A DNA stretch of 24,780 nt, from the IMG/VR virus record IMGVR_UViG_3300037067_004563, positions 1 to 24,780 of that record; one strand, written 5' to 3'. Under the pieces are notes generated by a model. The model was not told the origin of the DNA, searched no databases, and saw only the letters and a list, made by a program, of their open reading frames with translations. This document shows, in pieces, positions 1 to 11,360 of the stretch. A program made the position numbers and the translations under genes. This DNA is from a virus. How positions within the stretch are numbered: the stretch's first letter is position 1; each line of letters opens with the position of its first letter.

Positions 1-326
1 CTATCATAAACCAACTTAGACCCCCACAAGAATTTATGAATACAACCAATAAACAAGGAGCTTGGTTCATGACAGTGAATTACATTTGCATTATAGCACA
101 GACTACTTGCAAGAGCCATGGCACAGTTAGGTATATGATCTTTCATAGATATTTTCCCATCAAAGCCCCTTATTAACACGCCGTTATTATCTACATCCCC
201 ACAATTGCAAGATTTATCTATTGCTATAACTGTTACATTATGCTCTTTTGATAGTGTAACAGCCTCTTTATAATAAATCCTATGATCATGCACACCGTGC
301 ACGGTAGATAACATTAACACTCTCAT
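1..326 (-). CDS. GT4-family glycosyltransferase, N-terminal domain (truncated by window edge; not in ORF track)
   Basis: Manual translation: MRVLMLSTVHGVHDHRIYYKEAVTLSKEHNVTVIA...ANVIHCHEPSSLFIG...GSKLVYD. Shows GT-B N-terminal motifs (D-x-RI..KEA..L, VIHCHEP, KLVYD). ATG overlaps the TGA of the upstream gene (ATGA). Confidence 0.8.
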   Translation of the reverse strand, partial: MRVLMLSTVHGVHDHRIYYKEAVTLSKEHNVTVIAIDKSCNCGDVDNNGVLIRGFDGKISMKDHIPNCAMALASSLCYNANVIHCHEPSSLFIGCIHKFLWGSKLVYD

Positions 327-2772: not shown

Positions 2773-3027
2773 TTAAACGCTTACCATCTCAAGCACTTTG
2801 TTTTCAAGAAGTTCAGTACTCTTAAAAATCTGCTCAACTGTATAGAAACAGTCATCCACCTGAAGCACAGGAGCGTTATTCGTGAAGACCTGGTTAAACC
2901 TGAGCTCTGCAAGATTTTCAGCTTCCTGCATGTCAAGAGATTCAAATGCTATACCATGAGCTTTGAAAAACTTTTTAAGTTTATTGCACTTCGGGCAAAC
3001 TTCTGTAGAATATACATTTACTATCAT
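2773..3027 (-). CDS. nrdH: NrdH/glutaredoxin-like redoxin (Methanosarcina NrdH type)
   Basis: VYST..CPKC active site, LAELRFNQVFTNNAPVLQVDD (cis-Pro loop), thioredoxin-fold size of 84 aa; a class III RNR is encoded in the same arm. Confidence 0.8.
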   Translation of the reverse strand: MIVNVYSTEVCPKCNKLKKFFKAHGIAFESLDMQEAENLAELRFNQVFTNNAPVLQVDDCFYTVEQIFKSTELLENKVLEMVSV

Positions 3028-6630: not shown

Positions 6631-6756
6631 TTACCGTTTATCATACTCTCCACACTCCTTATACTTTCCACTTACAATAGATCCATATCCGTGTATTTCA
6701 CAAGTACAAACACTTCTATCATACTTCTTACATGTTGAACAGTCTTTCCAGGTCAT
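6631..6756 (-). CDS. 41-aa Cys-rich protein (not in ORF track)
   Basis: MTWKDCSTCKKYDRSVCTCEIHGYGSIVSGKYKECGEYDKR; ATGA overlap with the MazG stop. Confidence 0.65.
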   Translation of the reverse strand: MTWKDCSTCKKYDRSVCTCEIHGYGSIVSGKYKECGEYDKR

Positions 6757-7025
6757 TCTTCCTCCTCATAACCAACTAATTCAGCTAGTCTATCAAGCTT
6801 AAAAGCTCTCCAGCCTTCTACTCTTTCACCCTTATTAAAAAGCAGCTTCATCTGCTCAAGCATTATTTCACAGTCTGCTATTTCCTCACACACATTATTC
6901 GGCTTGCCTCTTTTGTACTTGCAGAGTGCCTGGATAAGTTCAGAGCACTCTTCAATACACATGTCAATTTGACTTTCTGCCCCGTTTACACGTAGGACTT
7001 CTTTATACAGGTCTTGATCTGCCAT
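6753..7025 (-). CDS. mazG: MazG-like nucleoside-triphosphate pyrophosphohydrolase
   Basis: EECSELIQA...EEIADCEIML matches the EExxE...EExxD all-alpha NTP-PPase signature. Confidence 0.85.
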   Translation of the reverse strand: MADQDLYKEVLRVNGAESQIDMCIEECSELIQALCKYKRGKPNNVCEEIADCEIMLEQMKLLFNKGERVEGWRAFKLDRLAELVGYEEEE

Positions 7026-7587: not shown

Positions 7588-9810
7588 TTAAATCTCTACT
7601 CTTTTCCTGTCCTTAAGCTCCTGGCGTTTGCCAGCGTTCCAACCTTCTACAGCCTGGAGATAACCAGTAATCCTTGACAAGTGCTGCACTTTATCAGACC
7701 CACACTTAGGACATTTGTCATGCAACCCGTTGCTTACATACCCGCCATTTGTGCAAACTGTCATGTCTCTAGTGAAGGCAAAGTACCCAACCTGAGTATT
7801 CTTAGCCAGTTGCATGGCGAAATCCATCAGTCCTTCAGGTCTTGAGCTGCCCTCACCTAACCAGATATGCAGAATATTCCCACCATCTACCACAGGGAAG
7901 AAGGTATGCTCATAGCTTATTCTCTCAGGCAGCGTTATATTTGCGTTTACTGCCGTGTGTGTTCCGTTTGTGTAATAAATTGGTAGGTCCTTTGTCTGAT
8001 CTATCTGTTGTAAGGCTGCCTCAAGATCCCCTTTTATCACAGTTGCCGCTTTGTCTCTGTACTCTGTGTGTAAGAGGTCACTGACAGCAAACCTTTGTGC
8101 TGTTGTCTCTGCAGGTGTGCGCGCAAGAGCAATAGTTATACCATTTTCTTTTGAGAGCTCCTGAGCGTACAACTTCATCTCAAACATTGCCCTAATTGCC
8201 AATTTGTAAGCTTCCTTACTTTCATGGATTTGTTTGCCTGTGTGATACTGGACCATCTCATTAATTCCTATTACTCCAATAGTGTACACAAGACTATCAA
8301 AATCTACTGCCATGGAACCTATTTCTCCAGTGTTAGGGTCTCTAGGATGCTGTGAGGCGAAAGGAATCCTACCCTTTACAATTAGGTTATCCATCCATTT
8401 TCGTTTAACCTTGAAGATCTCAATGGCGTTATCCATAAGAGTTCTCAACCCTTTGAATAATTTTTCATCGTTGTGTTCTGCTTCATATGCTACCCTGGGG
8501 CAGTTTAAAGACATTACCATCCATGATCCCATAGAGAAATGAACACCGTTTCTGAAGTACATTTTATCATCGAAATGTTCATCATCTGCTGGATTTGCTG
8601 AAAACGAGTACGCGCAACACTGGTAGCAGCTCACCCCGTTACCCGCACCTCTATATTCAGGAATCTGATTATCAAAGTAAGGAGTACCAAACTTTGCAGC
8701 CAGTTCAAAGGATTTTAGATAAAGTTCATGGTATGTAGGTAATTCAGGATGTGCTTTATTAAACTCTTCTCTTTCATTCATAAAGTCTGGCTCAACTGAT
8801 ATTTCAGGCTTTGGGAAACTAAAAGGCTTTCCTACTGCGTCACCTTCAAGCATAACATTCATAAGAGCTTTAAAGCCGAGTCTTACCTCTCTTTCAAATT
8901 CTCCGTAAGTCCTTAAGGGTGCCTGAACACCATTACATACTTTACCACGATACACCACAGGTTTATCTTTCCAGAGTGTTGGAACACCTGGCGAAAGTTG
9001 CACAGAGCTGAAGACAGTTTGTCCACCCCTCGAAGCTAGCATCTGTGTCATTTCGTAAACAAACAACTGCATAAGCTGTTCTATTTCCTTCTCTGTTTTC
9101 CCTTCCCAATAAGGTGCCATGAATGTAAGGAAATTATAGAAACCCTGCCCGCCTGCAAAATTACTCTGTGCAGATCCCAAGATTTTAGTGGCGTGAAGCA
9201 TCGCAACCTCAGCGTTCTTTGCAGGTTTTGCTATACTTGTTTGCATACCTATGCCATCTGCAATGAAACCATAATAGAAGAAAAACCTTAAATCGTGGTC
9301 CATACAGAAAGAGCGTGTGCCGAAATATTCGAGATCGTGAACGTGACACATACCATCTAAATGCGAGTTCGCTAGCTTTTCAGGTAATAGCAGTAAATTC
9401 TGCTCTTTGCTCATTTTGTCGGCTTTTCTTTTGTGGGATGTCTCCGCATTACTTATTTGATTAGCGTTATCATTTGCCTCAAAACCATACCCTGAGTCAA
9501 TCTCGTAAGCGTCATACACAGAGGCACCTACCCTGGTCATAATGTTACGCCATTCTGCCTTACCTTCTTCCAGCAGTACAGAGTTTACAACTTCTCTGAT
9601 AAGTGGACCTGAAACCTGCTTAATATTCAATTTTAAAATTAAACCCTCTGCTTTCTGTGCAACTGCCTGAGCTTCTTCTATAGTTGCAGCAGGTTTGTTA
9701 TAAAATATCTCACTCAGTTTAGTTTCTTTTACTATCTGATTTACAATTGTTTGTCTGTCCCATGGCATTATAAACCCGTCTGTGTTTTTCACAGTAATAT
9801 TATTTATCAT
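7588..9810 (-). CDS. nrdD: Anaerobic (class III) ribonucleoside-triphosphate reductase, archaeal type with ATP cone; start revised to ATG 9810
   Basis: N-terminal ATP cone, HVHDLEYF..RSFC, YQCCAY, TPAETTAQRFA, C-terminal CPKCG and glycyl-radical loop SRITGYLQ..GWN.GK..E..DR. AGGTGGT SD and TAATG overlap support the ATG at 9810. Confidence 0.95.
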   Translation of the reverse strand: MINNITVKNTDGFIMPWDRQTIVNQIVKETKLSEIFYNKPAATIEEAQAVAQKAEGLILKLNIKQVSGPLIREVVNSVLLEEGKAEWRNIMTRVGASVYDAYEIDSGYGFEANDNANQISNAETSHKRKADKMSKEQNLLLLPEKLANSHLDGMCHVHDLEYFGTRSFCMDHDLRFFFYYGFIADGIGMQTSIAKPAKNAEVAMLHATKILGSAQSNFAGGQGFYNFLTFMAPYWEGKTEKEIEQLMQLFVYEMTQMLASRGGQTVFSSVQLSPGVPTLWKDKPVVYRGKVCNGVQAPLRTYGEFEREVRLGFKALMNVMLEGDAVGKPFSFPKPEISVEPDFMNEREEFNKAHPELPTYHELYLKSFELAAKFGTPYFDNQIPEYRGAGNGVSCYQCCAYSFSANPADDEHFDDKMYFRNGVHFSMGSWMVMSLNCPRVAYEAEHNDEKLFKGLRTLMDNAIEIFKVKRKWMDNLIVKGRIPFASQHPRDPNTGEIGSMAVDFDSLVYTIGVIGINEMVQYHTGKQIHESKEAYKLAIRAMFEMKLYAQELSKENGITIALARTPAETTAQRFAVSDLLHTEYRDKAATVIKGDLEAALQQIDQTKDLPIYYTNGTHTAVNANITLPERISYEHTFFPVVDGGNILHIWLGEGSSRPEGLMDFAMQLAKNTQVGYFAFTRDMTVCTNGGYVSNGLHDKCPKCGSDKVQHLSRITGYLQAVEGWNAGKRQELKDRKRVEI

Positions 9811-10019
9811 TATAACCACCTGTAGCCTGTTCCACCGTTAGAGTCTCTAACCTCTTCTATCAACCCTGCACTAAGCGCATCACTATACAACTTATCGTTA
9901 TGTGAGCACTTCCAAGCACACCCACCAATTGAACACGCCTCACAATTATTTGCGTGCATCATAGATTCACATTCTCTTAATGTCTCAGGATAATTTTTGT
10001 TTACCTGTACTTGTTTCAT
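9810..10019 (-). CDS. Hypothetical Cys-rich protein
   Basis: CEACSIGGCAWKC; TGGTGAG SD; its stop overlaps the nrdD start. Confidence 0.65.
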   Translation of the reverse strand: MKQVQVNKNYPETLRECESMMHANNCEACSIGGCAWKCSHNDKLYSDALSAGLIEEVRDSNGGTGYRWL

Positions 10020-10023
10020 TTTC

Positions 10024-10269
10024 TCACCATTCTATATAATTAATAAAATGTCTTGAATATGCTTCTCCTTGATCGTCAATTACACTAGTAGACAACCCTT
10101 GTACATCTGCACTCTTTGCCCACTTAACACGAACATTAAACCAGTTTTGATATACGCAAAAGCTTTTAGCCCACTCAACTGCAACTTTCTTTGCTTCCTT
10201 TACGTTATTGGCAACAACTGAAATACGCCAGCAATCAAACTCTTCCACATTATAGCCTTTTAGTACCAT
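10024..10269 (-). CDS. Hypothetical protein
   Basis: 81 aa, TAAATG coupling to the TS homologue. Confidence 0.7.
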   Translation of the reverse strand: MVLKGYNVEEFDCWRISVVANNVKEAKKVAVEWAKSFCVYQNWFNVRVKWAKSADVQGLSTSVIDDQGEAYSRHFINYIEW

Positions 10270-10890
10270 TTACACCCTCTCCCATGCGTTAAATTTGTCT
10301 GAATCACCTATTTTAAGGTGTGCGTTAATTACATACCTGCAATACTTTCCTATACCTCTGCCAAGCCTGAAAGCAAAGTATCTCTGCAACTGCCTAAATC
10401 CAAAGTCATCTGAAGGACTCGCCTGCCCACAGTCATTACTTCTGAAGATAGTAGTCATGCAGACTAAGCCGTCTATAATTTCAATCTGCAATCCTACACA
10501 ACATGGCACTTCTTTTGTGGACCCTACGTGTTCAGGACGGAATAAAGGAATATAGGCTCTTCTTGTGTTAGGATTCTGTCGAAGGATTTTAATAGTTTTT
10601 TCTATGAGTCCTTCCAGCCACATTAACCACCCATAACCATAATCAAAGCCAAGCCCCCTAAGCCTAGCATGAGAAGGATAAATAAGACCTGCTGCAAAGT
10701 CATTATCTAGTCTTTCTGTAGTGCTGCCCATTGGTACATGAGCCATATCCTGTGAGTCACAAATAAAGTGTATATTATGGCAAAATATGCATGAATCGCC
10801 ATTCTGATCTTTAGTAAGCTCTCCGTTTTCTCTTATGTGTTTCACGCCTGAAGAGTGAATACCCGCTAAGGTTTTTTCTACTATTTCCAT
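10270..10890 (-). CDS. Thymidylate-synthase superfamily protein, archaeal ThyA-like, with Asp at the pyrimidine-specificity position (candidate dCMP methyl/hydroxymethylase)
   Basis: FDYGYG, NPNTRRA, EVPC130C, FR150SND, P-S-D161, NAH. Spacing C130-R150-D161 equals E. coli C146-R166-N177 and T4 gp42 C148...D179. Confidence 0.85.
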   Translation of the reverse strand: MEIVEKTLAGIHSSGVKHIRENGELTKDQNGDSCIFCHNIHFICDSQDMAHVPMGSTTERLDNDFAAGLIYPSHARLRGLGFDYGYGWLMWLEGLIEKTIKILRQNPNTRRAYIPLFRPEHVGSTKEVPCCVGLQIEIIDGLVCMTTIFRSNDCGQASPSDDFGFRQLQRYFAFRLGRGIGKYCRYVINAHLKIGDSDKFNAWERV

Positions 10891-10894
10891 GTTA

Positions 10895-11176
10895 TCAGTC
10901 CAGAAGATCCTTGAAGCTTAACCAGCCTTTTCTAATGCAAATTAGCACTAGATAACCAAGCAGGTCCACAACATCATTCTTTCTTAACTCTTCACTGTTC
11001 TTTATTCTGCTTAGTTTATCATCTATCCTGGCATAAAGCAAGTCTTCAGACTCACTCTTAGAAAATACATTCATAGGTTCTAATGCAGAATTACCATACT
11101 TTTCATTCTTCTTTTCTAGGAAATACGATAAGTTTTCACACACTAACATAATTTTCTCTGCTGTTTCCTCAGTCAT
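10895..11176 (-). CDS. DUF1599-like nucleotide-modification-associated, all-alpha (MazG-like) protein
   Basis: KKNEKYGNS...RIDDKLSRIKN...DVVDLLGYLVL pattern; 4 nt upstream of the TS homologue. Confidence 0.7.
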   Translation of the reverse strand: MTEETAEKIMLVCENLSYFLEKKNEKYGNSALEPMNVFSKSESEDLLYARIDDKLSRIKNSEELRKNDVVDLLGYLVLICIRKGWLSFKDLLD

Positions 11177-11177
11177 T

Positions 11178-11291
11178 TTACCACCTCAGTATAAATTTAA
11201 CATTACAGAAAGGGCATTTGATAAATAACCCTCCTATAGCTGTTTTCCTGAACTCACCACCACAGGACGGACAGGTTATAAGCTTGTAAAT
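11178..11291 (-). CDS. 37-aa zinc-ribbon protein with apparent ATT start (not in ORF track)
   Basis: (I)YKLITCPSCGGEFRKTAIGGLFIKCPFCNVKFILRW; GGTGATAAA then ATT; its stop sits in the next gene's GAGGTGGTAAAATG. Confidence 0.55.
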   Translation of the reverse strand: MYKLITCPSCGGEFRKTAIGGLFIKCPFCNVKFILRW

Positions 11292-11320
11292 TTTATCACC
11301 AAGACTAATAGACAGTAAAA

Positions 11321-11335
11321 GTATATAACATTTTT
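11321..11335 (-). promoter_or_regulatory. Archaeal BRE/TATA promoter (AAAAATG TTATATAC) for the Zn-ribbon/DUF1599/TS/nrdD operon
   Basis: TATA-like box about 30 nt upstream of the 11291 start. Confidence 0.5.
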
Positions 11336-11360
11336 GCTTCTGTTCAGGACAGTTTAAAAA

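Follow-up and report, generated by a model that had tools for sequence, protein, structure and literature searches.

A short aspartate-type thymidylate synthase homologue in a metagenomic virus record is a candidate dCMP C5 one-carbon transferase

Nucleotide-level base replacement by homologues of thymidylate synthase (TS) is well known in bacteriophages. Xanthomonas phage XP12 has a dCMP methylase activity, and the DNA of halovirus phiN is fully substituted with 5-methylcytosine. At the level of the enzyme, the change of a single asparagine to aspartate (N177D in the Escherichia coli enzyme) gives specificity for cytosine, that is, for deoxycytidine monophosphate (dCMP; PMC13326640; PMC8670742; PMC5175136), and this one change makes a dCMP methylase of TS (L. 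casei N229D, E. coli N177D; PMC8670742). All of the natural or engineered aspartate forms in these three papers prefer cytosine nucleotides. Three further residue rules have been published. The ribose preference of MilA and BcmA stems from Lys133 and Ala176, with Arg and Ser giving preference for deoxyribose (PMC5175136), while the 5-hydroxy-dCMP synthases, which depend on flavin and O2, are recognized by D169N, and hydroxymethylases are said to be recognizable by an acidic residue at the position of E. coli L143 (PMC13326640). Here we describe a ThyA-like gene in a stretch of viral DNA referred to below as the window, a single IMG/VR record (IMGVR_UViG_3300037067_004563) of 24,780 bases that is classed as linear and about 42% complete. 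In our view the product of this gene is probably a dCMP-specific C5 one-carbon transferase that would feed modified dCTP to the viral polymerase, and we put the probability of this reading at about 0.68. It is supported by an aspartate that is invariant throughout the clade, by co-variation of further pocket positions, by solved relatives that act on cytosine, by the published rules, by the gene context and by the ratio of nonsynonymous to synonymous substitution rates (dN/dS).

The protein matches the Pfam thymidylate synthase family PF00303 with 32.4 bits (curated cut-off 24.3). Its top NCBIfam model is TIGR03283 (thy_syn_methano), which it matches over the full length with 78.6 bits, a score below the equivalog cut-off of 174.55 bits; cellular members score 190–300 bits. 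An AlphaFold2 model built from a 68-row alignment has the TS α/β fold with a mean predicted local distance difference test score (pLDDT) of 95.5, and Foldseek gives a probability of 1.00 for this model against many TS-family structures. Comparison with three relatives gives a dN/dS of 0.09–0.12, and the gene is therefore under purifying selection. The gene is real and its product folded, and the initial sequence-only reading of the locus as encoding a ThyA homologue with aspartate at the site of E. coli N177 is confirmed by both family models, by the predicted fold and by the alignment.

Residues were mapped with a MAFFT alignment that included the E. coli ThyA, T4 gp42 and RB69 gp48 sequences from annotated records. 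As shown in Table 1, Cys130, Arg150-Ser-Asn-Asp153, Pro159-Ser-Asp161 and His191-Leu-Lys193 are all found where the sequence-only reading had placed them. The motifs around the nucleophile and the specificity site read P129-C130-C131 and P159-S160-D161-D162, with Cys131 falling on E. coli His147. The spacing from the catalytic cysteine to the aspartate is 31 residues, as it is in E. coli ThyA (C146/N177) and in T4 gp42 (C148/D179). The catalytic residues of TS are retained, namely P129-C130, R110-R111, R150-S-N-D153, Y86 (E. coli Y94) and H191 (the equivalent of His207). The signature of the T4 gp42 type (C130, D161 and E127) is also present.

An indication of a changed substrate comes from comparison of the viral clade with its cellular relatives in one alignment. 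Residue 161 is aspartate in 25/25 rows of the short aspartate clade and asparagine in 23/23 rows of cellular short ThyAs, and residue 65 is phenylalanine in the same 25/25 rows versus tyrosine in the same 23/23; these are the only two columns that separate the two groups perfectly. Residue 68 is mostly glycine in the aspartate clade versus mostly glutamine in the cellular rows, and residue 193 is lysine, arginine or isoleucine throughout the aspartate clade versus tyrosine in all asparagine forms. The departure from the conserved H-x-Y that had been remarked in the window protein is thus a property of the whole clade. In a profile–profile alignment, Phe65 and Gly68 fall within the helix bearing the canonical catalytic Glu58. 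Judged from the alignments, the co-variation of positions 161, 65, 68 and 193 indicates a putative remodelling of the base and sugar pocket. Since several pocket positions change together, it also favours a fixed switch of substrate over a polymorphism that is tolerated. This bears directly on the simplest alternative, that the enzyme is an ordinary thymidylate synthase, converting deoxyuridine monophosphate (dUMP) to thymidine monophosphate (dTMP) and boosting the thymidine supply of the virus, with the aspartate as a tolerated peculiarity of its lineage. Such an enzyme would agree with the position of the clade as sister to cellular short ThyAs and with its being the sole TS homologue, with no ThyX, in four related virus records; moreover, the adjoining NrdD and, in relatives, a thymidylate kinase form the classic set for dTTP supply. 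We nevertheless regard it as improbable: the viral clade has the aspartate without exception, none of the cellular relatives read has it, three more pocket positions co-vary with it, and both the aspartate forms of the cited papers and the best solved relatives favour cytosine.

A word-indexed search returned 13 close relatives, every one of them metagenomic, and a HMMER search of 1.84 billion representatives gave 1565 matches (38 at E ≤ 1e-10), of which the nearest form a metagenome-only clade of short homologues of about 205–230 residues. Among the cultured phages and archaeal viruses of INPHARED no close relative was present, and the top full-length hits, at 25% identity, were asparagine-type dUMP hydroxymethylases of Pseudomonas phages. 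On the cellular side, a TIGR03283 search matched 234 of 301 Halobacteriota genomes. We read 52 cellular genes, 46 from these 301 genomes with all score classes represented and the others from a scan in which each prokaryote species was represented by one genome, and all 52 short archaeal-type ThyAs carried the asparagine together with H-x-Y. The possibility that cellular archaeal ThyAs might commonly carry aspartate at this site is thus not borne out. The species-level scan yielded asparagine forms only, from Altiarchaeota, Hodarchaeota, Wukongarchaeota, Aenigmatarchaeota, a Methanomicrobiaceae metagenome-assembled genome (MAG) and cyanobacteria. The top-scoring TIGR03283 class reads RSHDFGGAYPANLYG, which agrees with the motif FRSHD..YPANLYG given for Methanosarcina ThyA in the sequence-only reading and is of the asparagine type.

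A single aspartate-type gene was found among the 151 genomes of one family (that of genome G143), on a 46.7 kb contig of MAG G385. It is surrounded by a class II ribonucleotide reductase (RNR) bearing a TSCPD domain, a LAGLIDADG endonuclease, an RNA ligase, a dUTPase-family gene and an archaeo-eukaryotic primase (AEP), and the contig is a virus-like element. The locus (L114 in Table 1) is probably a second type of virus or provirus with the same enzyme, binned to a Methanosarcinaceae-like host. Literature on methanogen and Methanosarcina viruses, hydroxymethylase, thymidylate synthase and PDB entries 9IQC and 9IQU yielded no description of the short aspartate clade. Two variations were noted among the asparagine forms. 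In some (L011, L013, L014, L017, L033 and L088–L091) the short ThyA is fused behind an N-terminal domain of about 250–300 residues, for a total of about 420–520 residues; these occur in Aenigmatarchaeota, Saccharibacteria, many cyanobacteria (Microcystis, Anabaena and Richelia) and some Halobacteriota. Some Halobacteriota also have a second, divergent asparagine-type short paralogue scoring about 140 bits against TIGR03283 (L080 from G090 and L081 from G161). A selenocysteine site was considered for the second ThyA-like copies of two cellular genomes and rejected, the in-frame TGA being a stop codon.

A maximum-likelihood tree of 82 sequences (LG+C20+F+G4) was calculated from a sample drawn from the matches, which is hence biased towards aspartate forms, and its root is not established. 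The short aspartate clade (25 rows) is recovered with a support of 92 in the Shimodaira–Hasegawa-like approximate likelihood-ratio test (SH-aLRT). It is sister to the cellular short asparagine clade (24 rows, SH-aLRT 92), with a support of 91 for the joint node. RB69 gp48 and one other aspartate form branch just outside the short clades, and a separate clade of long aspartate forms (support 95) holds T4 gp42 and a MilA-like protein. Uniting the short aspartate clade with the T4/MilA-type clade costs 55.5 log-likelihood units and gives a p value of 0.0045 in the approximately unbiased (AU) test, in which the group was named after the tree had been seen and T4 gp42 is a long branch. The proposal that the protein resembles the archaeal ThyA clade rather than T4 gp42 therefore holds, by its best family model, its sister group and the AU test alike. 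At least five asparagine/aspartate changes are needed on the tree. Most neighbouring lineages in the match-biased sample carry aspartate, so the direction of change is not readable, and we abandoned the attempt to polarize it in either sense.

The tree also bears on the suggestion that a host-derived ThyA had been converted independently into a cytosine-modifying enzyme. Kinship to the short archaeal ThyAs stands. A recent capture does not: the aspartate clade is sister to, and not nested in, the cellular clade, and identity to the Methanosarcina-like host-type ThyA is only 28%, whereas for the nearby NrdD identity to that of the same genomes is about 75%. An independent conversion is no more than possible, given that the tree does not polarize the exchange. 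Along its entire length the NrdD shares 74–76% identity with its counterparts in 12 Halobacteriota genomes of 2.9–4.2 Mb, the next genomes being at 66–68%. Eleven of the 12 also stand at the top of the TIGR03283 search, the twelfth not being among the matches listed, and the ThyA motif of these genomes fits Methanosarcina. As far as gene similarity goes, the evidence suggests that the host, or failing that the donor of the gene, is Methanosarcina-like and would be a strict anaerobe.

Whether ranked by sequence or by fold, the closest solved relatives all act on cytosine nucleotides. The best single-sequence match in the PDB is the CMP hydroxymethylase MilA (2.7e-13), while the family profile best matches entries 9iqc/9iqu over the full length (1e-27), 9iqu being labelled in Foldseek as the dCMP hydroxylase AfhB of phage HY126; in the same profile search the L. 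casei N229D mutant ranks first among ordinary TS entries. In the fold comparison MilA and AfhB have query-normalized TM-scores (TMq) of 0.85 and 0.84, respectively, versus 0.67–0.75 for ordinary thymidylate synthases; the target-normalized score (TMt) of AfhB is 0.75–0.78.

The prominence of AfhB in these searches raises the question of whether the window protein is instead a flavin-dependent dCMP C5-hydroxylase of the HY126 AfhB/RB69 gp48 type, or performs some other chemistry on dCMP that does not involve a one-carbon unit. AfhB is the best full-length solved profile match and a top fold match, it is likewise short and lacks the tyrosine of H-x-Y, and RB69 gp48 branches beside the short clades. 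The D169N signature of the 5-hydroxy-dCMP synthases (R-S-x-N) is, however, absent from the protein in our alignment, which reads R-S-N-D153; Asp153 is kept, or is glutamate in some relatives, whereas RB69 gp48 has N186 in the same column. Furthermore, the hydroxylase reaction needs O2, and the virus has an oxygen-sensitive class III RNR and an apparently strictly anaerobic host, which disfavours an O2-dependent hydroxylase. We consider that there is very little chance of this alternative being correct.

The rank of MilA raises a different question, that of another substrate (CMP, a ribonucleotide or another pyrimidine nucleotide) or of a role outside virion DNA, for example in a small-molecule or RNA-related pathway like that of MilA. 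A lysine replaces the sugar-contacting tyrosine of H-x-Y, so that sugar recognition would be unlike that of all characterized family members. On the other hand, the ribose pair Lys133/Ala176 of MilA and BcmA is absent from the alignment, where Arg110 and Ser151 occupy these sites as in deoxy-specific enzymes; under the MilA rule these residues fit a predicted deoxyribonucleotide substrate. The gene also lies within a viral module for DNA replication and dNTP supply, and a grouping with T4 gp42 and the MilA-type enzymes is rejected by the AU test. This alternative is in our judgement very improbable.

The genomic setting of the proposed dCMP transferase is summarized in Table 1. The ThyA-like gene is part of a long co-directional array on the minus strand, and the window also encodes an ERCC4-type nuclease, a helicase, a DnaG-D5 primase-helicase, ParA and a family A polymerase; it contains no small P-loop kinase. 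The Pfam MazG match of the 90-residue protein is weak (17.2 bits), and the gene is kept in three related contigs (L093, L095 and L002/L094); a MazG gene also stands two genes upstream of P0014, a distant family member with 41% identity. Overlap of a thymidylate kinase gene with the ThyA-like start is seen in two branches that are distant from each other. In contig L002, whose ThyA-like protein is 90% identical, the kinase gene (9403–10008) and the ThyA-like start share 8 nt, and a deoxyribosyltransferase-like gene comes before the kinase; the other case is L108, which holds a 37%-identical member. Pairing of kinase and TS is annotated in Enterococcus phage 9183 and is also seen near RB69 gp48. 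Four related virus records have one TS homologue each, the ThyA-like gene, with no Pfam match for MazG (PF03819), dCMP deaminase (PF00383) or ThyX (PF02511) in these four and none for thymidylate kinase (PF02223) in the three scanned for it.

Table 1. Features of the window and of a related locus. Positions are those of the window except for L114.
Feature	Position	Strand	Remarks
ThyA-like gene	10270–10890	-	206-residue short-form Asp-type ThyA homologue, candidate dCMP C5 one-carbon transferase; ATG at 10890
Cys130 codon	10501–10503	-	Catalytic nucleophile in E127-V-P-C; E. coli C146, T4 C148; invariant in family alignment A1
Glu127 codon	10510–10512	-	Position of E. coli L143; acidic
R150-S151-N152-D153	10432–10443	-	E. 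coli R166-S167-C168-D169; phosphate-binding Arg/Ser, pterin-contacting Asp
Asp161 codon (GAT)	10408–10410	-	Base-specificity position, E. coli N177/T4 D179
H191-L192-K193	10312–10320	-	Stands in for H-x-Y, which contacts the sugar 3'-OH; Lys193 = E. coli Y209
Phe65 codon	10696–10698	-	Clade-discriminating position; invariant in A1
93-residue gene	10895–11176	-	Ends 4 nt before the ThyA-like start; phrog_1485, 1.6e-11
81-residue gene	10024–10269	-	Abuts the ThyA-like stop codon, operon-like array; kept in L095
NrdD, class III anaerobic ribonucleotide reductase	7588–9819	-	PF13597, 5e-155; 743 residues
MazG-type NTP pyrophosphohydrolase	6753–7025	-	90 residues; phrog_2245, 2.4e-26 and 1.2e-28; candidate dCTPase
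Glutaredoxin/NrdH-like redoxin	2773–3027	-	PF00462, 1.2e-06; possible NrdD reductant
Truncated gene	3–326	-	Runs off the left end; N-terminal 108 residues, begins MRVLMLS
Asp-type short ThyA of L114 (G385:C12:21000-40900)	9298–10038	-	FRSND..FPSD, H-I-R

Several smaller features of the locus deserve mention. The slot upstream of the ThyA-like gene is variable. In the window, L093 and L095 it holds the 93-residue DUF1599-like gene, in L002 (9043–10008) and L094 a DUF4406 deoxyribosyltransferase-like gene and the thymidylate kinase, and in the complete relative L096 an unrelated gene of 202 residues without a family match. The 93-residue protein has no Pfam match, and its nearest named Atlas cluster carries DUF1599 in 33% of its members (score 0.92), which we treat as a lead and do not count as evidence for a modification pathway. 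The 81-residue gene on the other side matches neither Pfam nor PHROG families. Upstream of the 93-residue gene, a gap of 184 nt (11177–11360, minus strand) contains a TTATATA box-like element and, closing immediately ahead of the ribosome-binding site GAGGTGGT, a short frame that encodes two CxxC pairs (..CPSCGG..CPFCN..); this frame may encode a putative zinc-ribbon micro-protein. The NrdD of L002 (10761–13481) has 906 residues and includes an intein (PF14890) that is absent from the window NrdD. The truncated product at the left end was likened to the N-terminal domains of GT4 glycosyltransferases in the Atlas feature search only (0.92–0.93, about 140 shared features); it has no Pfam or PHROG match and no homologue in the examined parts of the relatives, and it was likewise set aside as evidence for a modification pathway.

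Taken together, these data suggest how a dCMP transferase might work in this virus. The motifs, the fold, the aspartate throughout the clade, the asparagine of its cellular relatives, purifying selection and the gene context are shown by the analysis, while substrate, cofactor, product and the entry of the product into DNA are inferred from them. The enzyme would be a dimer of the TS fold that acts on dCMP instead of dUMP. By analogy with TS and with T4 dCMP hydroxymethylase, Cys130 would add to C6 of dCMP while Asp161 would read and protonate the N3/N4 face of the cytosine. C5 could then attack the methylene group of a methylene-tetrahydropterin, and Tyr86 would take the C5 proton. The resulting exocyclic methylene might either be hydrated to give 5-hydroxymethyl-dCMP or be reduced by the pterin to give 5-methyl-dCMP. 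Phosphorylation of the modified dCMP would fall to the thymidylate kinase in the relatives and, for the window, to the host or an unseen gene, after which the viral family A polymerase would build the modified nucleotide into viral DNA. The MazG-type pyrophosphatase may convert dCTP to dCMP, both feeding the pathway and depleting dCTP, with NrdD supplying dNTPs. The likely purpose would be to shield the viral DNA from host nucleases.

Several observations weigh against the assignment as a dCMP transferase or against a precise call of its product. Firstly, the nearest relatives in the tree are ordinary cellular thymidylate synthases. Secondly, a nucleotide-supply module of NrdD and thymidylate kinase would suit a plain dTMP synthase equally well. 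Thirdly, the 42%-complete window has no dNMP kinase, no dCMP deaminase and no proven DNA glycosyltransferase. Fourthly, the models used here detected neither thymidylate kinase nor MazG in the complete relative G306. Fifthly, the helix with the canonical catalytic Glu58 (E-L-L-W-F-L) is gapped by MAFFT in all short forms, cellular ones included; hhalign sets Leu69 opposite Glu58 with low confidence, and does likewise for the cellular short ThyAs, and profile–profile alignment gives no clear counterpart of Glu58 in either short clade. Lastly, with regard to the product, a glutamate or aspartate at the L143 position and a missing C-terminal lid are also found in cellular asparagine-type short ThyAs.

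The last point led us to drop the acidic residue at the L143 position as proof of a hydroxymethyl product, since cellular asparagine forms, presumed to be genuine thymidylate synthases, share both this residue and the absence of the lid; the product is therefore left between hydroxymethyl and methyl. Our expectation is close to even, with a slight lean towards hydroxymethyl, and sequence alone cannot settle the matter. As an observation in its own right, nearly all of the cellular short ThyAs (L005–L013 and L047–L092) read E-V-P-C or D-D-C-P at the nucleophile, which does not agree with the published hydroxymethylase rule. Either the rule is specific to certain lineages or the chemistry of the short archaeal 'thymidylate synthases' deserves a fresh look.

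A bolder version of the dCMP reading holds that the short aspartate clade is virus-specific, that its one-carbon unit comes from methylene-tetrahydromethanopterin or methylene-tetrahydrosarcinapterin and not from folate, and that viruses of Methanosarcina-like archaea have all of their DNA cytosine replaced by 5-hydroxymethyl- or 5-methylcytosine. We regard this as doubtful. The use of tetrahydromethanopterin (H4MPT) or tetrahydrosarcinapterin (H4SPT) as the carrier is conjecture, and the short scaffold is not tied to methanopterin, because short asparagine forms occur in cyanobacteria and in non-methanogen lineages. Were this version true, it would be the first nucleotide-level pathway of DNA base replacement shown in an archaeal virus and would make the enzyme the first in the TS family to combine a swapped pterin with a known substrate.

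A review of archaeal tailed viruses (PMC8651126) lists no thymidylate synthase for them other than the ThyX type, and our literature search found no description of nucleotide-level base replacement in archaeal viruses. The principle is familiar from phages, and the enzyme lineage and probable host domain are not described in the searchable literature. If the dCMP assignment is correct, methanogen viruses would also use the strategy of base replacement, with an enzyme from another, far shorter branch of the TS family. The sister clades of asparagine and aspartate forms, with only three or four co-varying pocket positions, would offer a clean system for the study of the choice between uracil and cytosine in the TS fold, and the old question of the one-carbon carrier of the short archaeal ThyA type becomes approachable by experiment. 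If the viral DNA is indeed modified, restriction, CRISPR and sequencing-based detection in methanogenic communities would all be affected.

With the T4 dCMP hydroxymethylase gp42 the window protein shares the TS fold, a cysteine followed 31 residues on by aspartate, an acidic residue three positions before the cysteine and the lack of a C-terminal lid. The proposed pathway likewise resembles that of T4, in which gp56 is a dCTPase and gp1 a dNMP kinase, in combining an NTP pyrophosphatase with a dedicated kinase, the latter found here in the relatives. In contrast to gp42, it belongs to another lineage, is 40 residues shorter, has H-x-K in place of H-x-Y and cannot be aligned in the Glu60 helix; the host is probably archaeal and anaerobic, and a glucosyltransferase is not proven. 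The short archaeal thymidylate synthases of TIGR03283 are similar in length class and architecture, match over the full length, form the sister clade and share the glutamate or aspartate before P-C and the missing C-terminal segment. They differ in having asparagine where the viral clade has aspartate, tyrosine where it has Phe65 and tyrosine where it has lysine, arginine or isoleucine in H-x-Y, the identity being 28%; furthermore, the aspartate clade is found on virus-like contigs and is not a cellular housekeeping gene.

MilA from Streptomyces rimofaciens (PDB entries 5b6d and 5jnh) has the aspartate at the specificity site and the acidic residue at the L143 position, but it carries a large extra C-terminal helical domain and Lys133/Ala176 where the window protein has Arg110/Ser151. 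HY126 AfhB and RB69 gp48 are also short TS homologues (234–238 residues) with the aspartate, with loss of the H-x-Y tyrosine and with dCMP as substrate; they differ in D169N, flavin and O2, compared with Asp153 and the virus of an anaerobe here. Finally, L. casei N229D and E. coli N177D are long canonical TS enzymes with a C-terminal lid. By analogy with these mutants, a methyl product would be a live option for an aspartate form derived from a true thymidylate synthase.

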